From Escherichia phage vB_EcoS_WF5505: a stretch of DNA of 47,082 nt. Of this stretch, positions 1 through 47,082 are shown in pieces. The stretch lies in the sequence record NC_073060.1, one strand, 5' to 3'. Each line of letters opens with the position of its first letter. The stretch's first letter is position 1. A program made the translations under genes and the position numbers. The notes beneath the pieces are model-generated. The model ran no database searches and had not been told where the DNA came from. It saw only the letters and a list, made by a program, of their open reading frames with translations.

Positions 1-103
1 CAGCAGATAGCGATCAACTTTTTCATACGCATGATTAATATTGGTTGCATTCAGCCTGGCACCCTGCTAGATTGGTTGCACACCAACGAGAGGACCAAAC
101 AAA

Positions 104-3488: not shown

Positions 3489-3495
3489 AATCACA

Positions 3496-3519
3496 AGCCC
3501 GGCTAATGTCGGGCTTTTT
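3496..3519 (+). terminator. Rho-independent terminator
   Basis: AGCCCG-loop-CGGGCT hairpin followed by TTTT. Confidence 0.6.
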
Positions 3520-3523
3520 ATTG

Positions 3524-3563
3524 CTTGACTTGCAACCAACATAGAGGCCATACTGCAACCAAT
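3524..3563 (+). promoter_or_regulatory. Promoter-like region with two TGCAACCAA(T/C) motif copies
   Basis: TTGACT then TGCAACCAAC (3531-3540) and TGCAACCAAT (3554-3563) upstream of small ORFs. Confidence 0.4.
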
Positions 3564-3585: not shown

Positions 3586-3672
3586 ATGACACGCAATGAT
3601 ATTTATGTACTGGCAATCTGGTCCGCAGCGGCCTTTATCGGAATGGTAATTTGTGAGGTGATGTATGGCTGA
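3586..3672 (+). CDS. Possible 28-aa hydrophobic peptide
   Basis: ATG after AAGGAG RBS; MTRNDIYVLAIWSAAAFIGMVICEVMYG; below track length cut-off. Confidence 0.3.
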   Translation: MTRNDIYVLAIWSAAAFIGMVICEVMYG

Positions 3673-3838
3673 GTTAATCCGCCTGATGGCGCGGGATGAA
3701 CACGTGAAAGTAACATTCTATGAAGGCGGCAAGTGCTGCCGAGTGGAGTGCTGCGACCGTGGCGTTAAAATGCAATTCGAAGGATACACGGACACTATTG
3801 TTGATATTCTTCGAGACCTGGGGACGATCCGCGGCTGA
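3665..3838 (+). CDS. Small Cys-rich hypothetical protein (57 aa)
   Basis: ATG overlaps upstream stop; contains CC...ECC cysteine pairs; not in track. Confidence 0.35.
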   Translation: MAELIRLMARDEHVKVTFYEGGKCCRVECCDRGVKMQFEGYTDTIVDILRDLGTIRG

Positions 3839-3885
3839 GGCCGTGGTATATTGTCCCCGGACCCATAATCAGGAAGTAAATTAAT

Positions 3886-5028
3886 ATGCACCCGCAAACT
3901 AAAATTACCGACGAGCAATTGATCGCTGAAGTGCAATCCGGCACTACCTCGAAAGATATTGCGAAGAAATACGGCCTTTCCCTTCGTAATGTCTATATGC
4001 GCAAAGCCCGCCTGTCGAAGAAAGGTATTGGACACGGCAACGATGCTGTAATCCGTAAGCGCGTTGCCGATGGCTTCGGCGTTAAGCGTGTATCCGCCCT
4101 GGTGCGTGGCAATGGCGAGGAGGTCATGTCCTGGGTCATCACCGAGCAGGACAAGGAGCGCCAACTCGAAGCAATGCGCGCCGTTGTCGAGGGCATGAAT
4201 AGCGAAATCACACCGGCAGCACCAGTGAGCGCTCCGCCAGTCCCGATCCAGGCGCTTGACCTGCTTAACCTGTATACCGTGTCTGACTTCCACCTGGGAA
4301 TGTTGGCGTGGGGCGAGGAAACTGGCGAAGACTGGGATATGGCAATCGCCGAAGACCTTTTTTACCGCTGGTTTGTCGAGGCCTTCGCACGCGCACCGGA
4401 CGCTGGCACTGCCGTTATCAATATCCTCGGTGATATGGCGCATTTTGATAGCCTTGATGCCGTCACGCCAGCCAGTGGTCATGTACTGGATGCCGATACC
4501 CGCTACCAGAAGTTGGTCCGCTACATGATTCGCATGGTGCGCAACGTGGTTGAACTGGCGCTGAAAAAACACCATAAGGTCAAACTGCTAATCGTCCAGG
4601 GTAATCATGATGAGTCCGGTATGATTTGGCTGGCTGAAATGTTCAATACCCTGTACGAGAACGAGCCGCGCGTTGATGTGGACACGTCACCGGACGTATA
4701 CAAAATGGTGCAGCACGGTAAAACAACGCTGTTCTTCCACCACGGACACAAAGCCCGCTTTGACGCCATCGAGCCGGTTATGATTTCTAAATTCAGACAG
4801 GCTTTCGGGTCCAGTGAGTACAGCTACGCGCACGTGGGCCACTTGCACCACCAGAAGATTGTTGAATCCCGCAACATGATTGTTGAACAGCACCGGACCC
4901 TTGCCGCTAAAGATGCATACGCAAGCCGCGGCGGTTGGATGTCTGGTCGTAGTGCTAACGTCATCACCTATAGCGCCAACTACGGCGAAGTAGCGCGCTT
5001 AACCATTAGCCCGGAAATGTTGAAATGA
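3886..5028 (+). CDS. HTH domain fused to calcineurin-like metallophosphoesterase (380 aa)
   Basis: N-terminal HTH-like SKDIAKKYGLSLRNVYMRKA; phosphoesterase motifs SDFHLG, ILGDMAHFD, VQGNHDE, FFHHGH, VGHLHH. Confidence 0.7.
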   Translation: MHPQTKITDEQLIAEVQSGTTSKDIAKKYGLSLRNVYMRKARLSKKGIGHGNDAVIRKRVADGFGVKRVSALVRGNGEEVMSWVITEQDKERQLEAMRAVVEGMNSEITPAAPVSAPPVPIQALDLLNLYTVSDFHLGMLAWGEETGEDWDMAIAEDLFYRWFVEAFARAPDAGTAVINILGDMAHFDSLDAVTPASGHVLDADTRYQKLVRYMIRMVRNVVELALKKHHKVKLLIVQGNHDESGMIWLAEMFNTLYENEPRVDVDTSPDVYKMVQHGKTTLFFHHGHKARFDAIEPVMISKFRQAFGSSEYSYAHVGHLHHQKIVESRNMIVEQHRTLAAKDAYASRGGWMSGRSANVITYSANYGEVARLTISPEMLK

Positions 5029-5237: not shown

Positions 5238-5244
5238 CCCTCCC

Positions 5245-5270
5245 AGCCCGCCGATTTGGTGGGCTTTTTT
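5245..5270 (+). terminator. Rho-independent terminator
   Basis: AGCCCGCC...GGTGGGCT hairpin followed by TTTTTT. Confidence 0.55.
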
Positions 5271-5354
5271 GTGCCTGTTATAATCCCCCTTAGATGGCTG
5301 GGCCGTCTCCTATGTTGCCGATGGTCGGCGCATATGCATAAAAGGGCTTATATC

Positions 5355-8822: not shown

Positions 8823-9909
8823 TCAACATATGGCGGATCGTATGATTCGCCGTCACATCTTCACCCAGCGCCTGAGCAATGACCAGGCGCGGCGGGTGTT
8901 GGCTATGTGGGAGAAGTTCCGGCCCACGTTACTTGGTAAGCTGACCGAGTTACTTGATGGCAAAAAGTCCATGAATAACAAGGCACTGACCACACTGTTA
9001 ACGCAAATCGACAAGACCGTCAAAACGGAACTGCGCACCGAGTTTAAGGCGCTGGCTGAAAGCCTTCAGGAGTTCGCCGACACGGAGGCTGATTATCTTG
9101 CCGATACATTAACGGCAGCGATCCAGCCAGCGGTCGCCGTACCGGCTGTTGAGGTTGTTGGCGTAGTGACTGGCGCGCAGATCGCAGCGACGGCTATGAA
9201 AAACCCATTCCAGGGTAACACCATGATGCAATGGCCCGATTCACTTTCGGAGTGGACCAGGACGCAGATCGGTAATCAGGTGCGCGCTGGATTCATCCAG
9301 GGCAAGCCGACTATGGAAATTATCGCGGACGTAAGGCGCGCTCTCGGCGGTCGTAGTGCGCAGGCAATCTCAAGCGTTGTTAAGTCCGCAGTAAACCACT
9401 ATGCGGCGACCGCCCGCGAATTAATGGTAAAAGCTAATGACGATATTCTCGAAGGTCGCCAATGGTTGGCTACATTGGATACGCATACTTCTCCCATGTG
9501 CCAGCTACGCGATCGCCTGTTTTATCCAGTTGATGTTACTCCCGACACCAAAGGAAAGCGCGGCGGGAAAGTGGTGGCTGGGTCACAATATGGCGCTGGT
9601 CCGGGCAAGCTGCATTATTGCTGCCGGTCTACGGAGACGTGGAAAGTCAAAGGCATGGAAGATTGGCCCAGTGGTAAGCGTCCGGCACTGAAGGCTGACG
9701 CGGGTCGATTGCTGAGTGAGCAGGTCGACGCGCAGACTGATTTCTTCTCATGGGTGCAGCGCCAGCCGCGCCATATTCTGGAGGAATTATATGGGGTGCA
9801 GCGCGCAGACCAGATTATGCGCGGCGTGAAAGTGCCTAAGATGTTCACCGATACCGGCGAACTAATGACTATTGCACAGCTTAAAAACCGGGGGTTATGG
9901 CGTGATTAA
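8806..9909 (+). CDS. Head morphogenesis / minor head protein (Mu F- or SPP1 gp7-like)
   Basis: 367-aa ORF following portal; assigned mainly by position. Confidence 0.5.
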   Translation: MARTINQHMADRMIRRHIFTQRLSNDQARRVLAMWEKFRPTLLGKLTELLDGKKSMNNKALTTLLTQIDKTVKTELRTEFKALAESLQEFADTEADYLADTLTAAIQPAVAVPAVEVVGVVTGAQIAATAMKNPFQGNTMMQWPDSLSEWTRTQIGNQVRAGFIQGKPTMEIIADVRRALGGRSAQAISSVVKSAVNHYAATARELMVKANDDILEGRQWLATLDTHTSPMCQLRDRLFYPVDVTPDTKGKRGGKVVAGSQYGAGPGKLHYCCRSTETWKVKGMEDWPSGKRPALKADAGRLLSEQVDAQTDFFSWVQRQPRHILEELYGVQRADQIMRGVKVPKMFTDTGELMTIAQLKNRGLWRD

Positions 9910-10361: not shown

Positions 10362-10874
10362 TTACAAACGCATCGGCATGATAACTAAAAAGGCACCTCC
10401 TTTGAACAGCACGCGTGTTGCCTTGTCTACTCCCTGAAATTCCAGTTTTAAGCCCTCAAACTTATGGTCGAACAATTTAGCAATTTTGCAGGCGTCGGAC
10501 AGGTATGCCCCTTTAAACCCGATAGCCTCCACTTTATTGCTGACGAAAGACGTAACTCTTCTCCAGTCTGGAAATCGTCCGTCTACAATCTCGATGGGTA
10601 TGGTAGCTATTAATACGTCTTTACTATCGAAGAACGCGGCGGAGGTGCCGTCTATGTTGCAGTATTCGAATTTAGTAGGTAAGCGGCCTTTAATTGATAC
10701 TATTTTACTTTCACCTTCTGGTACAACCGCAGACCCGCAGAACAAACGGTGACCGTCTGTAGCCACGATGTATCCTTTCTCGTCGAAAAATACACCATTT
10801 AGGAAGTATCGGACGTCATTAGTTGCGGCGCATATCGTAGCGGCTTTAAGATCGGCGTAGTTAACTTTAATCAT
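10362..10874 (-). CDS. Truncated beta sliding-clamp (DnaN)-like protein, 170 aa
   Basis: Matches E. coli DnaN (recalled, not searched): VRYFLNGVFF, ATDGHRL, VDGRFPDWRRV and C-terminal MPMRL; start MIKVNY with GAGGA RBS. Confidence 0.7.
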   Translation of the reverse strand: MIKVNYADLKAATICAATNDVRYFLNGVFFDEKGYIVATDGHRLFCGSAVVPEGESKIVSIKGRLPTKFEYCNIDGTSAAFFDSKDVLIATIPIEIVDGRFPDWRRVTSFVSNKVEAIGFKGAYLSDACKIAKLFDHKFEGLKLEFQGVDKATRVLFKGGAFLVIMPMRL

Positions 10875-10931
10875 TTTAATTTCCTCGTGGTTATGTAGAC
10901 GATAATTCGGGGCCATTACAGCCCCCTTTTG

Positions 10932-11696
10932 TTAGCGCGGAATACCGCAGATTTCGTTTAACGTCTTCACATCCAGCGCTACTGCCGTTGACTTCGGCTT
11001 GTCCGGGTATGGAATGAATTGTTCAACTTCAGGCCACGCCGCGATCAGCTTCTTGTCAGTATTGTGCATATCCAGCACGCCGGTAACGGTTAGTTTGAAC
11101 GCGTCATACTTCGCACGCAATTCACGGCGGGCCTTGTCGTTGTGGTCCAGGCGCTTGCAGAAATCATGCTCTGCCGGGTAGTCTACGCGACCGCGTGGTA
11201 GATATATCGGCAGCGCTTTTCCGTCCTCATCCACTTCACATACTGACGCGAGCATAATTTCCTCGTACCCCGGTACAATATCGCTAACGTCAGGCGCGAG
11301 CGTATTCATATATTTTTCTTCCCAGTATCCGCGGTGCTGGCGGTAGCGGTATCCGTCGCCGCTCATATGCAGGGTACGGATGTTACCGCCTGCGTTGATT
11401 TCGAAAGTGGAGCAGTAAACGCGTCCAATGCCTTTCTGACGGTCTTTGTTATAGCTATACGTCGCCTTGTCGGTGTAAACGCTGACGCCGTACATCTGCG
11501 ACTGGTTATCGCGGATTTCTGCGATATATGCGCGTAGCTCGGCGAACGTGTGAATGCCTTCTGGCATACAGTCCAGCGTAATTGCGTACGCCAGGTCGCG
11601 AGAGGCCATCATGATTGATTTGGCTTCAGTCGCGATTTCGTGGTCGCGCAGGATGTTAGCCAGAATCTGGTTTTTAATGTCTTTTGTCAGTCTCAT
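10932..11696 (-). CDS. Hypothetical protein (254 aa), upstream partner of DnaN-like gene
   Basis: Start MRLTKD with GAGGA RBS inside track ORF 10932-11741; no recognised motif. Confidence 0.55.
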   Translation of the reverse strand: MRLTKDIKNQILANILRDHEIATEAKSIMMASRDLAYAITLDCMPEGIHTFAELRAYIAEIRDNQSQMYGVSVYTDKATYSYNKDRQKGIGRVYCSTFEINAGGNIRTLHMSGDGYRYRQHRGYWEEKYMNTLAPDVSDIVPGYEEIMLASVCEVDEDGKALPIYLPRGRVDYPAEHDFCKRLDHNDKARRELRAKYDAFKLTVTGVLDMHNTDKKLIAAWPEVEQFIPYPDKPKSTAVALDVKTLNEICGIPR

Positions 11697-11845
11697 TTGT
11701 GTTTCCTCATTGTTGGTGTGCAACCAATATAGTGCAACCAATACCTGTATTGCAAGCGAATTTTGCGATTATTTTTATCGCTGATAATATTAAAGGCGTG
11801 AAGTCGAGCGGGTGGCCCGCTCTGCCACGATCCCAGGGGGATAGC
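11697..11845. promoter_or_regulatory. Divergent promoter region with two TGCAACCAAT copies
   Basis: TGCAACCAAT at 11719-11728 and 11733-11742; candidate plus-strand sigma70 elements TTGCGA (11763-11768) and TAATAT (11785-11790). Confidence 0.45.
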
Positions 11846-17003: not shown

Positions 17004-17317
17004 TTGAGGCGGCGCGACGCTTTTATGGCCCGCCGCCACCCTCCGAAGATGTAGCCGCAAGTTTATGGGGCGCGGCCCCCGAAGATGTTTGCCCGTCTGT
17101 TGCGCTATGGCCCGACAACGCGAAGATAGTCGCAGTCTTCACAGATTGCTCTACGCAATGGCGCACCGGATTCGGTGGGGCATACGGCATCGACTACGGA
17201 GTTCTGGAGTGGCTATTTAAGATGCACGGCATCGAAAACGAGCAACGTGCATTTAAAGATATAAAGCTAATGGAACGGATCGCGCTTGACGAAATGGCGC
17301 AACAAAACCCCGCATAA
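16641..17317 (+). CDS. Tail assembly chaperone GT-like fusion via programmed -1 frameshift
   Basis: A_AAA_AAC at 16994-17000 just before G stop; the -1 frame is open from 17000 to 17317 with no start codon of its own. Confidence 0.6.
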
Positions 17318-17319
17318 TG

Positions 17320-17645
17320 AAGCGGGACAAGCGGGACGTCCCGATCTGTCCCGTTTTGTCCCGCCCCTGTAAAACTGCATATCTACTCACTTTCATTGCA
17401 TAAACTCAAAGCGGGACAAGCGGGACGTCCCGCTTTGTCCCGCCCCTAAATATGCATACCTATTCAGATTTCGTGCATAAAACAAACGGGACAGAAAGCG
17501 GGACAAACAAGGGGCGGGACAAAGCGGGACAGCACCCCGTCCCCGTCAGTGCTGCCGCGGGTTTCAGCCGATCGGGACAGGCGGGACAACTACCAGTCTT
17601 TCAGACTAGACGGGGGTCAATGGCCCCCCTCGTCTTAGACTGAAT
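17320..17645. repeat. Non-coding iteron/palindrome element A
   Basis: Two tandem units with palindrome GCGGGACAAGCGGGACG/TCCCG.T.TGTCCCGC, then direct GCGGGACA repeats and a GC-rich hairpin; homologous to 44770-44945. Confidence 0.8.
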
Positions 17646-27782: not shown

Positions 27783-27863
27783 GTTATCATCTCCTATATT
27801 TGGTTGAGTTTTAGTATTGCACCGCTCAATCAAGAATGCAACCAATTTTAAGAGGATTCAGCT
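27783..27863. promoter_or_regulatory. Divergent promoter region between lipoprotein and tail-fibre genes
   Basis: Contains TGCAACCAAT (27837-27846) and inverted partial copy TTGGTTGAG (27799-27807). Confidence 0.4.
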
Positions 27864-30628: not shown

Positions 30629-30680
30629 GATGTTTTCCTTTTTAGTGGGGGCCGGATTGCCCCCGACGAGATAACTATAG

Positions 30681-30702
30681 TGCAACCAACCTATTGGTTG
30701 CA
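30681..30702. promoter_or_regulatory. Perfect 22-bp palindrome TGCAACCAA-CCTA-TTGGTTGCA (operator-like)
   Basis: Read directly; lies about 53 bp upstream of the 30628 minus-strand start and spans the stop of the HAD gene. Confidence 0.6.
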
Positions 30703-31161
30703 AGTAAATTTTGCTACGTTTATAGAATAAATTTTAGGGACCATATCGCTGCACGCCCGACGGATGGCGTCAATATTCTTAGCGCAGTCTTCAATGATGA
30801 CCAGTTCGGACACGTCCGCATAGCAAACCATTTTGAACACCGCGCACGCTTTAAATTCTGGCGGTGGGGTGTCGTCCAGCATGTGGCGCATGAACAACCG
30901 GCCCGTCGGGAATACTTCCAATTGCTTGGCGGTCGTATCCCAGCATTCGCGCTGCCGGTTAGTCAGATACGCTATCTCGAAGCCTTGCTCTTTGTACATG
31001 CGCAGCAACGGCAGCATGTCCATGTTCAGGTCTTCGCGGACGTGCGCTTTGTGCCACTTCGCCCAAAAGGTTGATTTGGTTTTTATGCCGGGCACCAGGT
31101 CAGCACGCGCATCACTTGAACCATTAATAACGCCATCCAGATCACAAATCAGTAGTTTCAT
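30691..31161 (-). CDS. HAD-superfamily phosphatase
   Basis: N-terminal MKLLICDLDGVI (DxDGV HAD motif I); 156 aa. Confidence 0.7.
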   Translation of the reverse strand: MKLLICDLDGVINGSSDARADLVPGIKTKSTFWAKWHKAHVREDLNMDMLPLLRMYKEQGFEIAYLTNRQRECWDTTAKQLEVFPTGRLFMRHMLDDTPPPEFKACAVFKMVCYADVSELVIIEDCAKNIDAIRRACSDMVPKIYSINVAKFTCNQ

Positions 31162-32299: not shown

Positions 32300-32354
32300 C
32301 GTGTTGTCTCCAGGTATTAAAAAGGGCGTTCCCTTCAGAACACCCCCAATATAA

Positions 32355-32381
32355 TGCAACCAATCTCGCAATGCAACCAAT
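32355..32381. promoter_or_regulatory. Two direct TGCAACCAAT copies, 17 bp apart
   Basis: 32355-32364 and 32372-32381, intergenic, upstream of minus-strand gene starting at 32299. Confidence 0.5.
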
Positions 32382-35257: not shown

Positions 35258-35297
35258 TTCTAAAATCCTCGATAGGGCTAACCGGCACACTATACCG

Positions 35298-35576
35298 CTA
35301 CGCGACCAATTCAGCAACCAATAAATCGCAGTCGGCTATGTTGTCAATAACGCGAACGTCAGCACCGCGGCGGGCCATTCGCTCATGTTCTCGCACCTGG
35401 TGCGGCTTCGGTTTTCCTCCGGGGCGCTTCACTTCGACGAATACTATGATGCCGTTGATGATAATAATCAGGTCGGGCGCACCTGCGCGCCCCTCCCATG
35501 CCAGCTTGCGGCAGAATCCGCCAACCTCTTTCACCCGTCGCATCAGGTGACTTTGAATATTGCCTTCTGGTGTCAT
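35298..35576 (-). CDS. VRR-NUC domain nuclease
   Basis: 92 aa with IIIINGIIVFVEVKRPGGKPKPHQ (PD-(D/E)XK-type VRR-NUC core). Confidence 0.65.
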   Translation of the reverse strand: MTPEGNIQSHLMRRVKEVGGFCRKLAWEGRAGAPDLIIIINGIIVFVEVKRPGGKPKPHQVREHERMARRGADVRVIDNIADCDLLVAELVA

Positions 35577-39074: not shown

Positions 39075-39163
39075 TTTTCATTTCCTCATTTCGCATGTAT
39101 CGGGGTTATTGTGAGCCACCCCGTTCGGCTTGGTTGCTAATTTACTTGGTTGCGCCTAAGCGG

Positions 39164-39406
39164 TCAAGCACTTTTATTAAAAAGATTTCGGGTCACGTAG
39201 TCGGAGGCGTTCTCGATCCAGCTTAACGGCGGGCGGTCTTTATGCTTTAACACCCAGTCTACGGCAACGTCACTGTAGCCATCGTCCAGCCAGCGGGATG
39301 GATGGCGAATCATCCAGGCCACCATTAACACGCCTTGCACGCAATGCAGGATAAATCCCAGCGCGCCGAGCATAATCATCAATACGAATGCAAATACCTT
39401 ATTCAT
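39164..39406 (-). CDS. Small membrane protein (80 aa)
   Basis: Two hydrophobic helices (FAFVLMIMLGALGFILHCV, VLMVAWMI). Confidence 0.45.
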   Translation of the reverse strand: MNKVFAFVLMIMLGALGFILHCVQGVLMVAWMIRHPSRWLDDGYSDVAVDWVLKHKDRPPLSWIENASDYVTRNLFNKSA

Positions 39407-41805: not shown

Positions 41806-41906
41806 GGTATATCTCCGATTGGTTAATTTAAGTGTTCGGTGCGGTGTGCCCCGTCAACGAGGTGAATAATAGATTGGTTGCAGGCGGGGTGTCAACAACT
41901 AATTTC

Positions 41907-41942
41907 AAAAAAAAAAGCGCCGAGGCAAAATGCGACGGCGCT
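41907..41942 (-). terminator. Rho-independent terminator (minus strand) in divergent intergenic region
   Basis: On minus strand AGCGCCG-loop-CGGCGCT followed by T10; lies upstream of the 41805 start. Confidence 0.55.
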
Positions 41943-42012
41943 AACCAATAAGAGACAATGAGACGTGATTATTATTACACGCGTGCGCGCCCGTTTCAAT
42001 ATTCAAAAGGAG

Positions 42013-42041
42013 TTGACACCCTGCAATTTTAGGTGTAGTTT
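42013..42041 (+). promoter_or_regulatory. Candidate sigma70 promoter for HTH regulator gene
   Basis: Consensus -35 TTGACA (42013-42018), 17-bp spacer, -10-like TAGTTT; about 30 bp upstream of ATG 42073. Confidence 0.4.
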
Positions 42042-42072
42042 CGTTGGTCATTAACCAATAGGAGACAGAACA

Positions 42073-42402
42073 ATGCATATCAACGACGCAATCGAAATGT
42101 TAACCAATGCTGTTAGCGGTGAGACAAGCCGGTCCTGGGCTTATACCGATGCCGTGGGTGAGGTGCTATTTGAAATCGAACGTCTGCGCAGTGTCGAAAA
42201 AGAATTGCGCGCCAAGCTGGAATTGCTAAACGGTACGGCAGCAAGCAAGTTGCAAAAGCACAATGAAGAAATGGAAGAATACAAAAAGCAGGTTATCCGT
42301 TTGCGCGACGAGGGCAAGTCCTGGGCGATGATTGCCGAGTTGACCGGAATTAATCAAAGCACCGTGCGCTCCTGGGTACGCAATAATAAAACTTCTAAGT
42401 AA
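42073..42402 (+). CDS. HTH DNA-binding protein (putative transcriptional regulator)
   Basis: 109 aa; C-terminal HTH-like SWAMIAELTGINQSTVRSWV; N-terminal coiled-coil-like region. Confidence 0.6.
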   Translation: MHINDAIEMLTNAVSGETSRSWAYTDAVGEVLFEIERLRSVEKELRAKLELLNGTAASKLQKHNEEMEEYKKQVIRLRDEGKSWAMIAELTGINQSTVRSWVRNNKTSK

Positions 42403-42412
42403 GGCATCGGCA

Positions 42413-44677
42413 ATGAGCTTAATTAAATTCGCAGTAACAAGACCCGCTAAAAAAGGCGAAAAAGCCAGGGCGGAAAACTTCGAGATGACCACTGATGAAT
42501 TTTTCGAATTTATCAATGATGCAAAAGAAATCTCGTCGGTGCATATCAACAAGACAGAAGATAAAGCCGAGTATGCGCGCCGCAAGCGTAAGGCCGATGG
42601 TATCGTGGCATATACCAATGACGGATTACGCCGCAAGACCAGTGCGGTCGACCGCTCGATCCTGTTCTTCGATATCGACCGTACTGACACCCGCACTTTA
42701 CGCCGCTGCCGTAAGGCGTTCACCGACGCTGGTCTGGAGCATGTATTTCACACCACGACCGGCGACCGTCACCCGTTGAAAGGCGGAACACGTTGCGCCC
42801 GTTTCCTGGTGCTCACTGATAAGCCTGTACCGGCGGAAGACCTGGGCCGCGTCCAGTATGCATTGTTAGACCAACTGGGCCTGTCAGATGTGGACTTCGA
42901 CGATTGTACAAAAGACACAAACCGCCTTATGTACCTGCCTCACCAGCAGTCTGTCATAAAGTGCCATTATGGCAAGCGCGCCCGTGTCCGTCGTCTGCTT
43001 CGCCTGGCTGACAAGCTGGGAGTTGAGAAAGAGGAAGTGCGCCGCGAACTGACCCAGGGCGACGATGGCGTGGCGGACGGGATTCTGGACTGGTGCTTCC
43101 AGGCTGGCTTTGAACCACTGTCATCCGGTCGCGGTTATGAAGTGCCGTGCCCGAATGAGCACCTGCATAGCGGTGAAGGGTCGACGGCTATCATGGTTAA
43201 GGATGGCGAGATCCGTTTCAAGTGTATGCACACCGGCAACGAATGCTGTTCCGAACTGAATAAACACCAGCACCTGGCGTTACGTCTGATCGGTATCCCG
43301 GACCACTTGAACGTCGAACCACACAACATGTCACGCAAGCAAATCGCCGCCATCCTTCCTGGACTGGACGACGAGGAAGTGGAATCGTGCTACGAGCATA
43401 TTGTTGATGCGGTCGGAGACGGCGACGAGTACGGCGAATGCACCGACGCTGACCTGGACAACGAGCCGGTCGCACTGTTCAGTAAGCACGACCCGATTAT
43501 CGAAGGCCTGGTCAACTTCAAATCGACCTGGTATATGGCGGGTGAGTCGAACATTGGTAAGTCGTTCTACGTGCTGGGCCAGATGGGCGCTGTTGCCGCG
43601 GGCATTCCGTTCGGCGGCGCGAAGGTCGTCCAGTCGCATTGCTTCTATTTCGATGCGGAAGGCGGCGAAGCCTCCAACCAGCGTAAAGAAGCATTGCAGA
43701 TCAAATATGAGCACGACCTCGACAAGCTGCACATTATCGACCTGCAATCACGCGGCTGGGATATTACCAGCAAGTCAGGCTTGCGCGAGGTTATCAGCTT
43801 TATCAACCGCACCGCTAACGGGGAGCCGGTTGGCCTGGTGGCCTTCGACTCACTCAACCAGACTGTAGCGCTGCGGTCCGCTGATGCCAAACCGTTCGAC
43901 GAGAACAACGCAAGCGATATGGGCGAAGTGGTCAAGGCGCTGAAGTCCATTGCGGAAAATACAGGTGGCAGTGCGGGCGTCATCCATCACCCGGCTAAGG
44001 GTGCAAACGGCAGCAGGTCACCACGCGGGTCCGGCGCGCTTCATGGTGCTGTAGATTCTGCGTTCTTCCTGGAACAGCCGGACGATAATCAGCCAGGCCA
44101 GCTTAACCTGTATCACGAAAAGTCACGTAACGGCATCAAGCAAGCGCCGCGTGGCTTCGTCCTGCTCAAGTGCAAAGTTAAGGTGGATCTCCGTAAGTCT
44201 GATGCGTTCGAAGCCCACCAGTCCACCAGCACCGGGCCAGACTTCGGCGATGTGGTTGCCGGTTGGGACGTCAAGCCAATTGCATCCACGCCACGCGACG
44301 AGACTCTCTACCTCGTACCGGTCGCCCTGGCACCGTTCGCTATCGAACAGGCTAAGGCAGCAGGCAAGGCAGCAGTTAAGGAAGAGAACACCGCCGGACC
44401 GCGCAACGAGAAAGAGAAGGTGCTTTATGCGGCACTGGAAAAACTGATGGAAGATAACCCGGACCATACTGGATTCAGTAAATCGGCAATTGTCCGCCAG
44501 GCTGGACTTGCGAAAGGTGGCACATCGACGAAGGCAATCGACGATATGGTAGAGCGCGGAGTGCTCGGATTTTATACAGACCCACACACCGGGGCCATCT
44601 ATGGGTCGTCGAATTTAGTCATCAAATCGGATATACCCATCACGCTTTCAGCGACCGATGACGACCTGAAAGATTAA
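42413..44677 (+). CDS. DNA primase / replicative helicase
   Basis: 754 aa; Cys/His cluster CPNEHLHSGEG...KCMHTGNECC; C-terminal Walker A GESNIGKS; coupled to HTH gene. Confidence 0.7.
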   Translation: MSLIKFAVTRPAKKGEKARAENFEMTTDEFFEFINDAKEISSVHINKTEDKAEYARRKRKADGIVAYTNDGLRRKTSAVDRSILFFDIDRTDTRTLRRCRKAFTDAGLEHVFHTTTGDRHPLKGGTRCARFLVLTDKPVPAEDLGRVQYALLDQLGLSDVDFDDCTKDTNRLMYLPHQQSVIKCHYGKRARVRRLLRLADKLGVEKEEVRRELTQGDDGVADGILDWCFQAGFEPLSSGRGYEVPCPNEHLHSGEGSTAIMVKDGEIRFKCMHTGNECCSELNKHQHLALRLIGIPDHLNVEPHNMSRKQIAAILPGLDDEEVESCYEHIVDAVGDGDEYGECTDADLDNEPVALFSKHDPIIEGLVNFKSTWYMAGESNIGKSFYVLGQMGAVAAGIPFGGAKVVQSHCFYFDAEGGEASNQRKEALQIKYEHDLDKLHIIDLQSRGWDITSKSGLREVISFINRTANGEPVGLVAFDSLNQTVALRSADAKPFDENNASDMGEVVKALKSIAENTGGSAGVIHHPAKGANGSRSPRGSGALHGAVDSAFFLEQPDDNQPGQLNLYHEKSRNGIKQAPRGFVLLKCKVKVDLRKSDAFEAHQSTSTGPDFGDVVAGWDVKPIASTPRDETLYLVPVALAPFAIEQAKAAGKAAVKEENTAGPRNEKEKVLYAALEKLMEDNPDHTGFSKSAIVRQAGLAKGGTSTKAIDDMVERGVLGFYTDPHTGAIYGSSNLVIKSDIPITLSATDDDLKD

Positions 44678-44769
44678 ATTTTGCGCGCATTGGTTGCCAT
44701 TTTGAGTGTTTTTAGCTGGCCGCATTGGTTGCCGTGTAGTGTAAATATAGTGAATAGTTATGCAGTTTT

Positions 44770-44945
44770 ATTGCATAAAACAAACGGGACAAAAAGCGGG
44801 ACAGACAGGGGGCGGGACAAAGCGGGACAGCACCCCTGTCCCGCCCCGGATTACGCGGCTTGCAGGGGTGCGGGACAGGCGGGACAAACCCCAGTCTTTC
44901 AGACTAGACGGGGGTCAGTTGGCCCCCCTCGTCTGAGACTGCATA
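44770..44945. repeat. Non-coding iteron element B
   Basis: TGCATAAAACAAACGGGACA..., four or more GCGGGACA repeats, GC hairpin; about 85-90% identical to 17476-17645; after primase-helicase and before right terminal repeat. Confidence 0.8.
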
Positions 44946-45159
44946 AAATCCTGGATTGCATAATGCACGGCAGCATGATGAGAATTGCGGTCGTTGATGA
45001 ACTAGGCAACCAATGCGAGTTGGATAATGGAGAGTGAAAAATGCAGTTTGCAGTTACAGCAGATAGCGATCAACTTTTTCATACGCATGATTAATATTGG
45101 TTGCATTCAGCCTGGCACCCTGCTAGATTGGTTGCACACCAACGAGAGGACCAAACAAA

Positions 45160-45330
45160 ATGAAATTTCCAGTAACCATCAAAGACGGTAAATCAACTAT
45201 CACCTTCACCAGCAACGACCAGGGCACCTATGAAAGCGGGGCGACTTGCATGTCTACCCTGGACGATGTGATGATTCGTGTTAATTCCGGTAAAGCCTCG
45301 ATTGTTGACGACAACACTAAGAAGGACTGA
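45160..45330 (+). CDS. Duplicate of 104-274 (small early protein)
   Basis: Inside right repeat, identical sequence. Confidence 0.5.
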   Translation: MKFPVTIKDGKSTITFTSNDQGTYESGATCMSTLDDVMIRVNSGKASIVDDNTKKD

Positions 45331-45333
45331 ACA

Positions 45334-45639
45334 ATGAGAGCATTAATCTGGAAATACTCACGGGCCATAGCGAAGCTGGACGAAGCGAAAAACACAAACG
45401 GCAACGTAGACTATGCGCGCCAGTTTGCGGCACGGGCACACCAACACATCATGAGTGCGCTCGACGATATGGACGCCAGCATGGATGACCTGGGTCCGCT
45501 GCGTAAGGCTATCCATGAATACGCGCTGGCATTCTCCCGTGAGCGCCTGGCCTATCGCTTCGGTATTGGCGATAAGGCAGTGACAAACGTTGCCCGGATT
45601 AAAGCCCAGCGTGAGCTATTCGCCCAGCTTGCGAAATAA
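45334..45639 (+). CDS. Duplicate of 278-583
   Basis: Identical translation in ORF track. Confidence 0.6.
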   Translation: MRALIWKYSRAIAKLDEAKNTNGNVDYARQFAARAHQHIMSALDDMDASMDDLGPLRKAIHEYALAFSRERLAYRFGIGDKAVTNVARIKAQRELFAQLAK

Positions 45640-45648
45640 GAGGCCAAA

Positions 45649-45918
45649 ATGACCCGTAGACGCGCAAAACAGCTTTCGTGGCATATCCCCCTGCATTGCA
45701 TACGAATATGGGCTAAGAATGCGAATGAGGGCGATTCAGTGTTCTGGTGCTATCGCGACGACGTTAAGCCGTTGACGCAGACTCGCTACTTGCACCAGTT
45801 CGCAGCACAACACGATTTCAGGGTGCGGACTTCCTTGCAACCAATGGGGATCCGTATTACATTACGCCGGAAGCCCGCCGTTGAGCGGGTAGGCAAACAC
45901 TGGAGACTGAGCAAATGA
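45649..45918 (+). CDS. Duplicate of 593-862
   Basis: Identical translation in ORF track. Confidence 0.55.
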   Translation: MTRRRAKQLSWHIPLHCIRIWAKNANEGDSVFWCYRDDVKPLTQTRYLHQFAAQHDFRVRTSLQPMGIRITLRRKPAVERVGKHWRLSK

Positions 45919-46259
45919 TTCGAGTAACCGCACGCCACGAACAATCGGGGGCCACTTACGATGTAATCGACGTTCGCGGCGCGTTCGTCATCTTCGGACG
46001 GGGTGACGACCGGCTGGCGCTGCCGATCGGTATGCTGAGCACATACGACTATTTCAAGCATAACGTCCGGTGTGGCGATGTGCTGCGCGATAAGCGCACC
46101 GGTGAGCTATGGACGGTGGCGAGTATTTGGGTGAAAGATAAACGGCAGCACACGTTATTGCTCGCCCGCCCGGATTGCAAACAGCAAACTATTAACACTA
46201 TTGGCCTGGTGGACTACACCCGCGTAGGCCGTAACGCTACCTGGAGACTGAGAAAATGA
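45915..46259 (+). CDS. Duplicate of 859-1203 (paralogue A)
   Basis: Identical translation in ORF track. Confidence 0.6.
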   Translation: MIRVTARHEQSGATYDVIDVRGAFVIFGRGDDRLALPIGMLSTYDYFKHNVRCGDVLRDKRTGELWTVASIWVKDKRQHTLLLARPDCKQQTINTIGLVDYTRVGRNATWRLRK

Positions 46260-46888
46260 AATTACTATTCCGCCGTAACTCAGATGGCTATATCCTGAAG
46301 CCGATCCAGACCCTATCGAACTGGGTACGCCTCCACCACGTTGCGAGTGATAAAGTCTGGTGGGCGACTAAGGCAAAGCTGCCGGAGTACTACGAAATCC
46401 TCACACACGATATCGAGCGCGGCGATGTGCTGCGGGATATTCGCGACGGGCAATTGTGGGTCGTGGAATACGTGGGTCGGCACGGCCTGCGTATGACGTC
46501 CCGCAAGGATGGCGTAGCGGGCAACATGGTCAAGGGCATGACTTACTTCGGGCTACTCCACTACGAACGAGTGGGCCGCAAGTACAGCCTGCGTGCGCGC
46601 CAGCCTCATGAGCGAGCGAACGCCATAGCGGACGTCGTTAACCGCGTAGCGCGGGAGGTGGAGCAGAAGACACGCGTTGAGTTCTGCAAGTCCCAGCCAG
46701 CCTATGCAACCTACGACGCGAGCAAAGCGCAGGAATTGATCCGCAGTGCCACGCATGAAATCATCAATCACGTTGATGCCATGACGAACGCCAAGCGCCA
46801 GGCCAGCGAATACGGCGTAGGATTCATCCGTGTCGAACAAGACGGCAACATGACCGCCATCGACCCGCGCACGGTAATACTGAAATGA
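46256..46888 (+). CDS. Duplicate of 1200-1832 (paralogue B)
   Basis: Identical translation in ORF track. Confidence 0.6.
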   Translation: MKLLFRRNSDGYILKPIQTLSNWVRLHHVASDKVWWATKAKLPEYYEILTHDIERGDVLRDIRDGQLWVVEYVGRHGLRMTSRKDGVAGNMVKGMTYFGLLHYERVGRKYSLRARQPHERANAIADVVNRVAREVEQKTRVEFCKSQPAYATYDASKAQELIRSATHEIINHVDAMTNAKRQASEYGVGFIRVEQDGNMTAIDPRTVILK

Positions 46889-47009
46889 GCGCAACTATCC
46901 GTGATATGCTTATGCATAACCGCTTTGAGATAGGCGGGAGAGTGTTCTGCAATTACTTCGTGGCGCGTGCTTGGGCGCGCCATATCGGAAAACCAGTAGG
47001 GGCAATACG

Positions 47010-47082
47010 ATGCTACACGATTTGATATTTTGGTTTGGTTTGGGGTGTGCGTCACTCTTTGCTATAGTGCTGGCGCTGTTGA
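47010..47082 (+). CDS. 5' fragment of duplicate of 1954-2241, truncated by window end
   Basis: Same sequence as 1954-2026; the window (and the repeat) ends inside the gene. Confidence 0.4.
   Translation, partial: MLHDLIFWFGLGCASLFAIVLALL

Follow-up and report, generated by a model that had tools for sequence, protein, structure and literature searches.

A nine-base motif recurring in predicted promoters of Dhillonvirus phages and its candidate role as an operator

What is the function of the inverted repeat at positions 30681-30702 of Escherichia phage vB_EcoS_WF5505, and why does half of it recur at so many other sites in the same DNA? A sequence-only reading of record NC_073060.1 (all 47,082 nucleotides, hereafter the window) had proposed a phage-specific regulatory element, either an operator for a dimeric helix-turn-helix (HTH) regulator, with the protein encoded at 42073-42402 as the candidate, or a promoter box analogous to that of T4 MotA. 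The window belongs to Dhillonvirus, the HK578/JL1-like E. coli siphophages; about 160 phage records match it at 80-97% identity, with vB_EcoS-CHD5UKE2 and 101114BS4 as its nearest relatives over 27-35 kb, and Escherichia phage Haito_Bas83 encodes a primase-helicase with 100% identity to its own. Members of the genus are common among E. coli phages; the BASEL collection includes some, and they serve in work on defence systems and in screens for therapy. In the searchable literature (genus name with promoter, motif strings, HK578/SSL-2009a and Jerseyvirinae) we found no description of the motif and nothing on the regulation of transcription in Dhillonvirus.

Recurrence and distribution of the motif

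The last part of the window, 45057-47082, is an exact copy of positions 1-2026 (2,026 bp), leaving a unique genome of 45,056 bp; the window over-runs the genome, by terminal redundancy or by circular wrap, and motif counts are therefore inflated by three. The gene map, drawn from the list of open reading frames and the annotations of relatives, places early small genes, lysis, packaging, head and tail on the rightward strand and replication and DNA metabolism on the leftward strand (29.4-41.8 kb), with a divergent control region at 41806-42072. Of the genome, 3,556 bp (7.9%) are non-coding.

Shuffling gave an expectation of 0.49 copies of the word TGCAACCAA and never more than 3, whereas the window has 16. 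Copies starting at 41, 72 and 780 are the same as those at 45097, 45128 and 45836, so that 13 unique exact 9-mers remain, and the recurrence claimed from inspection is borne out. The informative core is GCAACCAA(T), the flanks being without information; GCAACCAA itself is present in 20 copies where about 1.3 are expected. Sixteen of these 20 lie wholly within the 7.9% of the genome that is non-coding (binomial P = 8e-15), as do 11 of the 13 exact 9-mers (P = 5e-11), and two of the four "coding" core copies (30694 and 35314) fall in terminal (last or first) codons beside promoters. Against a shuffled background the motif is thus enriched, with a density biased to non-coding DNA rather than equal in coding DNA, consistent with the earlier description of it as mostly intergenic.

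The copies are indeed often paired, at start-to-start spacings of 13 (inverted), 14, 16, 17, 23, 31 and 35 bp, a range somewhat wider than the 14-31 bp first given. The site at 30681-30702 had been read as a perfect 22-bp palindrome; its actual structure is TGCAACCAA-CCTA-TTGGTTGCA, in which 9-nt inverted arms enclose a 4-nt asymmetric spacer. Every site in the original list exists, but those at 44689, 44724 and 45006 are the one-mismatch form GGCAACCAATGCG, and two others duplicate the first two. The GGCAACCAATGCG variants (44690-44698 and 44725-44733 on the minus strand, 45005-45013 on the plus strand) flank a GGGAC-repeat region, "region B", just 3' of the primase-helicase gene. Additional to that list are an exact plus-strand copy at 780-788, which lies within a gene (593-862; duplicate at 45836-45844) and is kept in SO-1 and Gluttony, and copies of the form AGCAACCAA/CGCAACCAA at 35313(+), 39130(-) and 39146(-).

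The typical site is one asymmetric 9-mer, and a promoter usually has two of them at variable spacing. A scan for TTGGT-N(0-8)-ACCAA returned the N5 form alone, exactly three times and each time directly after a -10 hexamer; these dyads belong to promoters A and C and to the promoter of the HTH gene.

Placement within predicted sigma-70-type promoters

Each intergenic locus that bears the motif, ten in all, has a sigma-70-like promoter enclosing it. These promoters, which we infer to fire, are consensus predictions from a scanner supplemented by sub-threshold loci. The scanner independently calls promoters over the motif at 3525-3554, 11755-11726, 30703-30674, 39167-39139 and 41895-41866, all near consensus (9-11 of 12), and the remaining motif promoters lie one match under its threshold; over the window, promoter-like sites are overall no commoner than in shuffled sequence. 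Relative to the -10 element, the 8-mer is found at -39..-32, -34..-22, -22..-14 or -8..+2, and both of its orientations are used at -22..-14.

In one class of loci (A, D, F and K, with one copy each at C and I) the reverse-oriented motif, ATTGGTTGCA(T), constitutes the -35 hexamer. In 6 of the 20 copies the hexamer TTGCNN lies upstream of a -10-like hexamer, at a distance of 17 nt in five and 18 nt in one, compared with a background of 6.8% (P = 0.0016). At promoter A (40-87, plus strand; duplicate at 45096-45143), ATTGGTTGCAT provides the -35 TTGCAT (45-50), followed by a 17-nt spacer and the -10 TAGATT (68-73), which overlaps a second copy that forms a TTGGT-N5-ACCAA dyad (72-86); this predicted promoter would drive the block of small genes beginning at 104. 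Promoter D (27813-27845, minus strand) lies in a divergent region and serves the gene for a cor-like lipoprotein. Its motif (27837-27845) supplies the -35 TTGCAT, 17 nt from AATACT (27818-27813), and the same copy lies 19 nt 5' of the tail-fibre ATG (27864). Promoter F (32348-32380, minus strand) has the same arrangement, with TTGCAT from the motif at 32372-32380, a 17-nt spacer and TATATT (32353-32348), and a second copy (32355-32363) adjoins its -10. Directly 3' of promoter F, at 32310-32347 on the minus strand, is a terminator-like hairpin with a T-run, and the predicted start lies inside its 5' arm, so that transcripts arriving from upstream would terminate and those initiated at F would be without the hairpin; compared with relatives, the stem has apparent paired changes (TTC/GAA to TCC/GGA). 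In promoter K (35289-35321, minus strand), AGCAACCAA at 35313-35321 provides the -35 TTGCTG, again with a 17-nt spacer, before TATAGT (35294-35289).

Promoter C (11712-11755, minus strand) consists of TTGCAA (11755-11750), an 18-nt spacer and TATATT (11731-11726). One copy occupies the spacer (11733-11741) and a second spans -8..-1 (11719-11727), where it is widened to a TTGGT-N5-ACCAA dyad (11713-11727). The minus-strand genes served by this promoter, at 10362-11696, encode Nmad5, which is nucleotide-modification-associated, and a DNA polymerase III beta clamp-like fragment, and lie antisense within the head-gene block; both are missing from SO-1 and HK578.

In a second class (B, G and H) the -35 is a canonical TTGAC(A/T/C), the -10 is a good one, and the spacer between them holds a copy in forward orientation; a second copy often lies across the start site. 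Promoter B (3525-3562, plus strand) has TTGACT (3525-3530), an 18-nt spacer and CATACT (3549-3554), with copies adjoining the -35 (3531-3539) and at -7..+2 (3554-3562); a terminator lies upstream at 3495-3516. Promoter G (39130-39167, minus strand), 5' of a gp2.5-like SSB gene, combines TTGACC, a 17-nt spacer and TAAATT with copies adjoining the -10 (39146-39154) and at -5..+2 (39130-39138). Promoter H (41866-41895, minus strand; TTGACA, 18-nt spacer, TATTAT), with its copy in the spacer (41874-41882), is the best match to consensus (11/12) and the first promoter of the leftward early/replication operon. Its orthologue was annotated as a promoter by the depositors of HK578, whose record marks three promoters in the control region and does not mention the motif word. 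Between the start of gp46 and promoter H (around 41835 of the window), most relatives, including L002, L005 and L006, carry an insertion of about 150 bp that is missing from the window and from L007, L010, L013 and L018.

The inverted repeat from which we set out belongs to promoter E (30674-30703, minus strand), where TTGCAA (30703-30698) is separated by 18 nt from TATAGT (30679-30674). Its inverted 9-mers, at 30694-30702 and 30681-30689, occupy the -35 and the spacer, and a leader hairpin follows. Upstream of the HTH gene, the predicted promoter at 42013-42059 (plus strand) has TTGACA (42013-42018), a 17-nt spacer and TAGTTT (42036-42041); next comes a degenerate dyad, TTGGTCATTAACCAAT (42044-42059), directly 5' of the ribosome-binding site. 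The distant contigs L021, L023 and L024 have a perfect GCAACCAAT at the position of this dyad, which is absent from HK578; it is possible that the dyad serves as an autoregulatory site. The sequence TAACCAATA(A/G)GAGACA occurs twice here as a direct repeat (41942-41960 and 42050-42072), with one copy preceding the HTH gene and the other an unannotated open reading frame of about 30 codons inside the divergent control region.

The presence of both orientations within unidirectional gene blocks indicates a signal that is read on DNA rather than RNA. An RNA-level signal was rejected on this ground and for want of any Rfam match at the gathering threshold.

Conservation within Dhillonvirus and presence in a second subfamily

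How strongly is the motif retained? The genomes of SO-1, HK578, Gluttony, CHD5UKE2 and 101114BS4 contain 19-21 copies each (21 in SO-1, 19 in HK578), and the distant syntenic contigs L021, L023, L024 and L146 have 6-15 per 10 kb. Nine orthologous intergenic regions were aligned, each represented by 3-17 distinct sequences. Identity to the window is 99.4% in motif columns compared with 87.2% in other intergenic columns (120 versus 883 columns; Mann-Whitney P = 9e-10, with neither columns nor sequences being independent). RNA polymerase does not read promoter spacers, and the constraint on the motif holds inside them, while the bases between paired copies and the rest of the spacers vary freely. 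As judged from these alignments, the motif is under purifying selection. Taken together with its intergenic location in promoter cores, this gives good support to its designation as a regulatory element.

Motif position and copy number shift between orthologous promoters. Promoter H, with one copy here, has two tandem copies that fill the spacer in L021, L023 and L024 (TTGAC-GCAACCAAC-GCAACCAAT-c-TAGTAT), and the copy at promoter G adjoins the -10 here and the -35 in L021. Such variability of position within a fixed promoter would suit an occluding operator and not the site of a geometry-dependent activator.

The proposal that the element is phage-specific has to be broadened: the same core and architecture are also found in another subfamily, in the Klebsiella phage VLCpiS11a (Guernseyvirinae), whose replication module is shared with the window at 30-68% protein identity. 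VLCpiS11a has 13 copies of GCAACCAA, 10 of them in 3.2 kb of intergenic DNA, with the consensus ATTGCAACCAAC-n-T. It uses the same promoter designs, including recurrent GTTGGTTGCAAT-17-TATAGT, and by gene order its copies lie at corresponding positions, 5' of gp46-like, SSB, Lar-like and scaffold genes and after methyltransferases. (Its Nmad5 gene is located in the early operon instead.) Two unclassified Guernseyvirinae, phiEap-2 and SenTO17, have a one-base variant, (G)CAGCCAAC(A), clustered 3' of the primase-helicase gene (L150, SenTO17, 3669-3995; L151, phiEap-2, 9340-9721). A scan of IMG/VR for the pair pattern returned Dhillonvirus contigs; the other multi-copy loci that we examined were chance pairs or same-strand repeats at multiples of 9 bp, which we read as coding repeats.

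Candidate readers of the motif and competing explanations

The reading that we favor, and to which we give an even chance, is that GCAACCAA(T) is an operator, where a sequence-specific protein would bind and keep RNA polymerase off sigma-70-type promoters. Occupying -39..-32, -22..-14 or -8..+2, this protein would be in competition with the polymerase. The motif promoters head most early, replication and accessory transcription units, and accumulation of the factor would turn them down together in a Cro-like or global circuit for shut-off and timing, with the sign of regulation being presumably negative. Structural genes would be read from motif-free promoters. Two candidates were picked by eye from the intergenic sequences: the gap at 5238-5333, 5' of the small terminase gene, has an extended -10, TGTTATAAT, and the gap at 11697-11845 has TTGCGA-16-TAATAT. 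One argument against an operator is that, if a repressor is to cover almost every promoter of a virulent phage, its late promoters have to be free of the motif, and those named here are themselves guesses. The use of both orientations and of several positions from -39 to +2, shifting between orthologues and within near-consensus promoters, favors the operator among the two roles originally suggested. A MotA-like box was ruled out on geometry, as the motif takes at least four positions and both orientations instead of a single orientation at a fixed position near -30.

Which protein would bind? Probably the factor is encoded by the phage, and the leading, albeit unproven, candidate is the 109-residue protein with a C-terminal HTH encoded at 42073-42402 (plus strand), the first gene of the rightward early operon, directly 5' of the primase-helicase gene. 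Its residues 65-105 match HTH_23, HTH_28 and Sigma70_r4_2, the sole recognisable DNA-binding domain among about 30 small or unknown proteins scanned. An AlphaFold model (pLDDT 86.7) has a 57-residue helix leading into a three-helix HTH, from which we infer that the protein may be dimeric; searches by structure and fold gave generic tri-helical HTH matches alone (E > 0.6), and a PDB search by sequence was uninformative. Among homologues the last 65 residues are near-invariant, with N-x-S-T-[VI]-[RK]-x-W invariant in all, and the first 45 or so are hypervariable, being swapped for an unrelated longer segment in HK578 and CHD5UKE2, which keep the HTH. A near-invariant HTH would be compatible with an invariant DNA target. 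An attempt to find covariation met a motif and a recognition helix that are both invariant, even where the HTH protein is only 46% identical. In various records the homologues are annotated as transposase, resolvase or Gam, and we found no support for any of these.

The motif and the 109-residue protein co-occur in all Dhillonvirus-like genomes examined. The candidate of the sequence-only reading is a real HTH protein with an invariant recognition helix. Its proposed link to the motif is weakened by VLCpiS11a, which carries the motif but in whose six-frame open reading frames, all of them searched, the protein found no homologue (best E = 2.4). Its slot 5' of the primase-helicase gene is taken by an XRE-type HTH, which in turn has no homologue in the window. 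To our surprise, the motif persists in two subfamilies despite replacement of the adjacent regulator gene, by one of another HTH class, which poses the question of its reader. We consider it a minority possibility that neither neighbouring HTH protein reads the 9-mer and that a so far unrecognised conserved protein, of phage or host, gates essentially all sigma-70 promoters of Dhillonvirus and of a Guernseyvirinae lineage at once; if true, virulent siphophages would have an ancient global switch of transcription that spans lineages and has no described counterpart among them so far. The recognition helices of the XRE-type proteins read S-H-[IL]-C in SenTO17 and phiEap-2 and S-F-V-Q in VLCpiS11a, which could be covariation with the motif variant across three genomes. 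Nmad5, suggested as binder by a small presence/absence profile of about ten genomes, was rejected, since SO-1 and HK578 lack the gene yet keep their 21 and 19 copies.

Several other mechanisms deserve consideration. Instead of a repressor, an activator or a sigma-region-4-like appropriator might dock at the motif and exert positive or dual control, replacing the weak -35 at promoters of the first class (ATTGGTTGCAT-17-[-10]) and perhaps repressing at the second, in the manner of lambda CII, phi29 p4 or T4 MotA. The -35 role of six of the 20 copies would suit an activator equally well; in addition, the -35 hexamers of this class match consensus at just three of six positions, the GTTGGTTGCAAT-17-TATAGT design is shared with VLCpiS11a, and the HTH protein matches Sigma70_r4_2. 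We nevertheless find an activator unlikely, given that the remaining copies sit in spacers or at start sites of near-consensus promoters in both orientations, that no Pfam MotA or AsiA family matches any of the approximately 30 small or unknown proteins scanned, and that TTGCA resembles TTGACA, so that any site lying over the -35 may pass for such a hexamer through mere coincidence of sequence. Less probable still is a host-factor site, an enterobacterial DNA-binding protein reading the 9-mer and the phages exploiting it. Such a reader would account for a motif common to phages with non-homologous neighbouring regulators and invariant while phage proteins diverge to 30-60% identity, and the hosts are all Enterobacterales. 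On the other hand, PdhR/GntR-type dyads (ATTGGT-N3-ACCAAT) have 0 copies at N3; the related phages examined have no promoter-type motif (0 copies in a Salmonella Jerseyvirus, and three in an E. coli Kagunavirus, none apparently promoter-associated); the one-base variant CAGCCAAC in two relatives suggests lineage-specific recognition; and the IMG/VR scan led back to Dhillonvirus. We know of no E. coli factor that matches the motif: the CytR octamer, AATGCAAC, overlaps just its less-conserved 5' edge, and the sites of NtrC (TGCACCA), sigma-54 (-12 TTGCA), OmpR (GTTACA) and the marbox differ from it in spacing or key bases.

A replication-linked site, coupling promoters to origin firing or helicase loading, seems improbable to us by a further step. 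Its reader would be the primase-helicase, by way of a C-terminal winged helix like that of P4 alpha, or else some other initiator. In the window and in relatives, the variant copies flank the repeat region directly 3' of the primase-helicase gene, which is also where the one-base variant is clustered in phiEap-2 and SenTO17, and the enzyme is a shared orthologue (49% identity in VLCpiS11a) with a winged-helix-like C-terminus. Most copies, however, lie in promoter cores distant from the repeat regions; three variant copies flank region B, none lies in region A, and the rest are at dispersed promoters, a distribution unlike that of origin iterons. The lineage-specific repeats GGGACAA, GGTGCCA and ACTCGCAA are better iteron candidates, and the C-terminal domain is just 36% identical in VLCpiS11a despite the same core motif. 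Finally, the likeness might reflect no trans-acting factor at all, if promoter cassettes had multiplied within the genome by copying and recombination had held the copies uniform. Near-duplicate promoters do exist, such as two 40-bp promoters in VLCpiS11a, and modules of promoter plus hairpin recur, but the likeness is limited to 9 bp with uninformative flanks, occurs in both orientations and at differing promoter positions, and in alignments the 9-mer is kept while adjoining spacer bases vary. We regard this as the most improbable of the mechanisms considered.

How would an operator of this kind compare with known systems? By analogy, its logic would be nearer to the P1 C1 operators and lambda Cro than to the T4 MotA box. 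P1 is a temperate phage whose C1 protein maintains lysogeny through asymmetric 17-bp operators dispersed over the genome. The likeness lies in many scattered asymmetric sites, single or paired, overlapping promoters and under one controlling protein, here a proposed one. The difference lies in a site of 9-10 bp rather than 17 bp and a binder that is a candidate only; among the annotations we read for this phage, none indicated lysogeny genes. Lambda Cro turns down early transcription in lytic growth, and the lambda operators are 17-bp dyads limited to two control regions (OR and OL). As with Cro, a small early HTH protein is encoded beside divergent early promoters and the sites overlap -35 and -10 elements, whereas here ten or more promoters across the genome carry sites, for the most part lone 9-mers that resemble half-sites, and the HTH is of a sigma-4/resolvase-like fold class. 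The stoperators of L5 gp71 and Bxb1 gp69 have one orientation relative to transcription and block elongation. They share with the present motif dozens of short asymmetric sites in short intergenic gaps, but the latter is used in both orientations and falls on promoter cores. With the T4 MotA box the motif has in common a lineage-specific word near -30/-35, a host-type -10 and, in the first promoter class, use of the motif as -35; unlike MotA boxes, with their fixed position and orientation, it also occupies spacers and start sites.

The P4 alpha system bears on the repeat regions. In P4, type I iterons are confined to ori and crr, and the window likewise combines a primase-helicase having a putative C-terminal winged helix with two distant repeat regions, A and B, with motif variants beside B; the arrangement of the two regions recalls ori and crr. 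The difference is that GCAACCAAT stands mainly at promoters, and the GGGAC repeats would better suit an iteron role. These non-coding regions, at 17300-17640 and 44750-44930, share 82% identity over 177 nt, contain dense (A)GCGGGACAA / GTCCCG repeats (15 and 7 copies of CGGGAC, respectively) and are labelled repeat regions A and B in the SO-1 record. The repeat unit is specific to the lineage, being GGTGCCA in L146 and L021 and ACTCGCAA in VLCpiS11a, there again in two regions. Residues ~665-735 of the primase-helicase (42413-44677) are winged-helix-like, with a weak eS25 match (E = 0.17), and are the most divergent part of the protein among relatives; this C-terminus may be an origin-binding domain.

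What is the relevance of a single 9-mer at about ten promoters? It offers a map of transcription units and a testable regulon. It could also provide an engineering handle, as mutation or transplantation of the operator should de-repress or co-regulate genes. A second over-represented word, ACGGCA(A/G)C, is about 19-fold in excess. Its 52 copies (e.g., at 342, 5112, 9112, 22057 and 41717), of which the top strand has 40 and the bottom strand 12, lie in coding DNA and in more than one reading frame; in VLCpiS11a, a Jerseyvirus and a Kagunavirus, related words likewise rank first among k-mers. This excess could be a codon-pair effect or an oriented signal.
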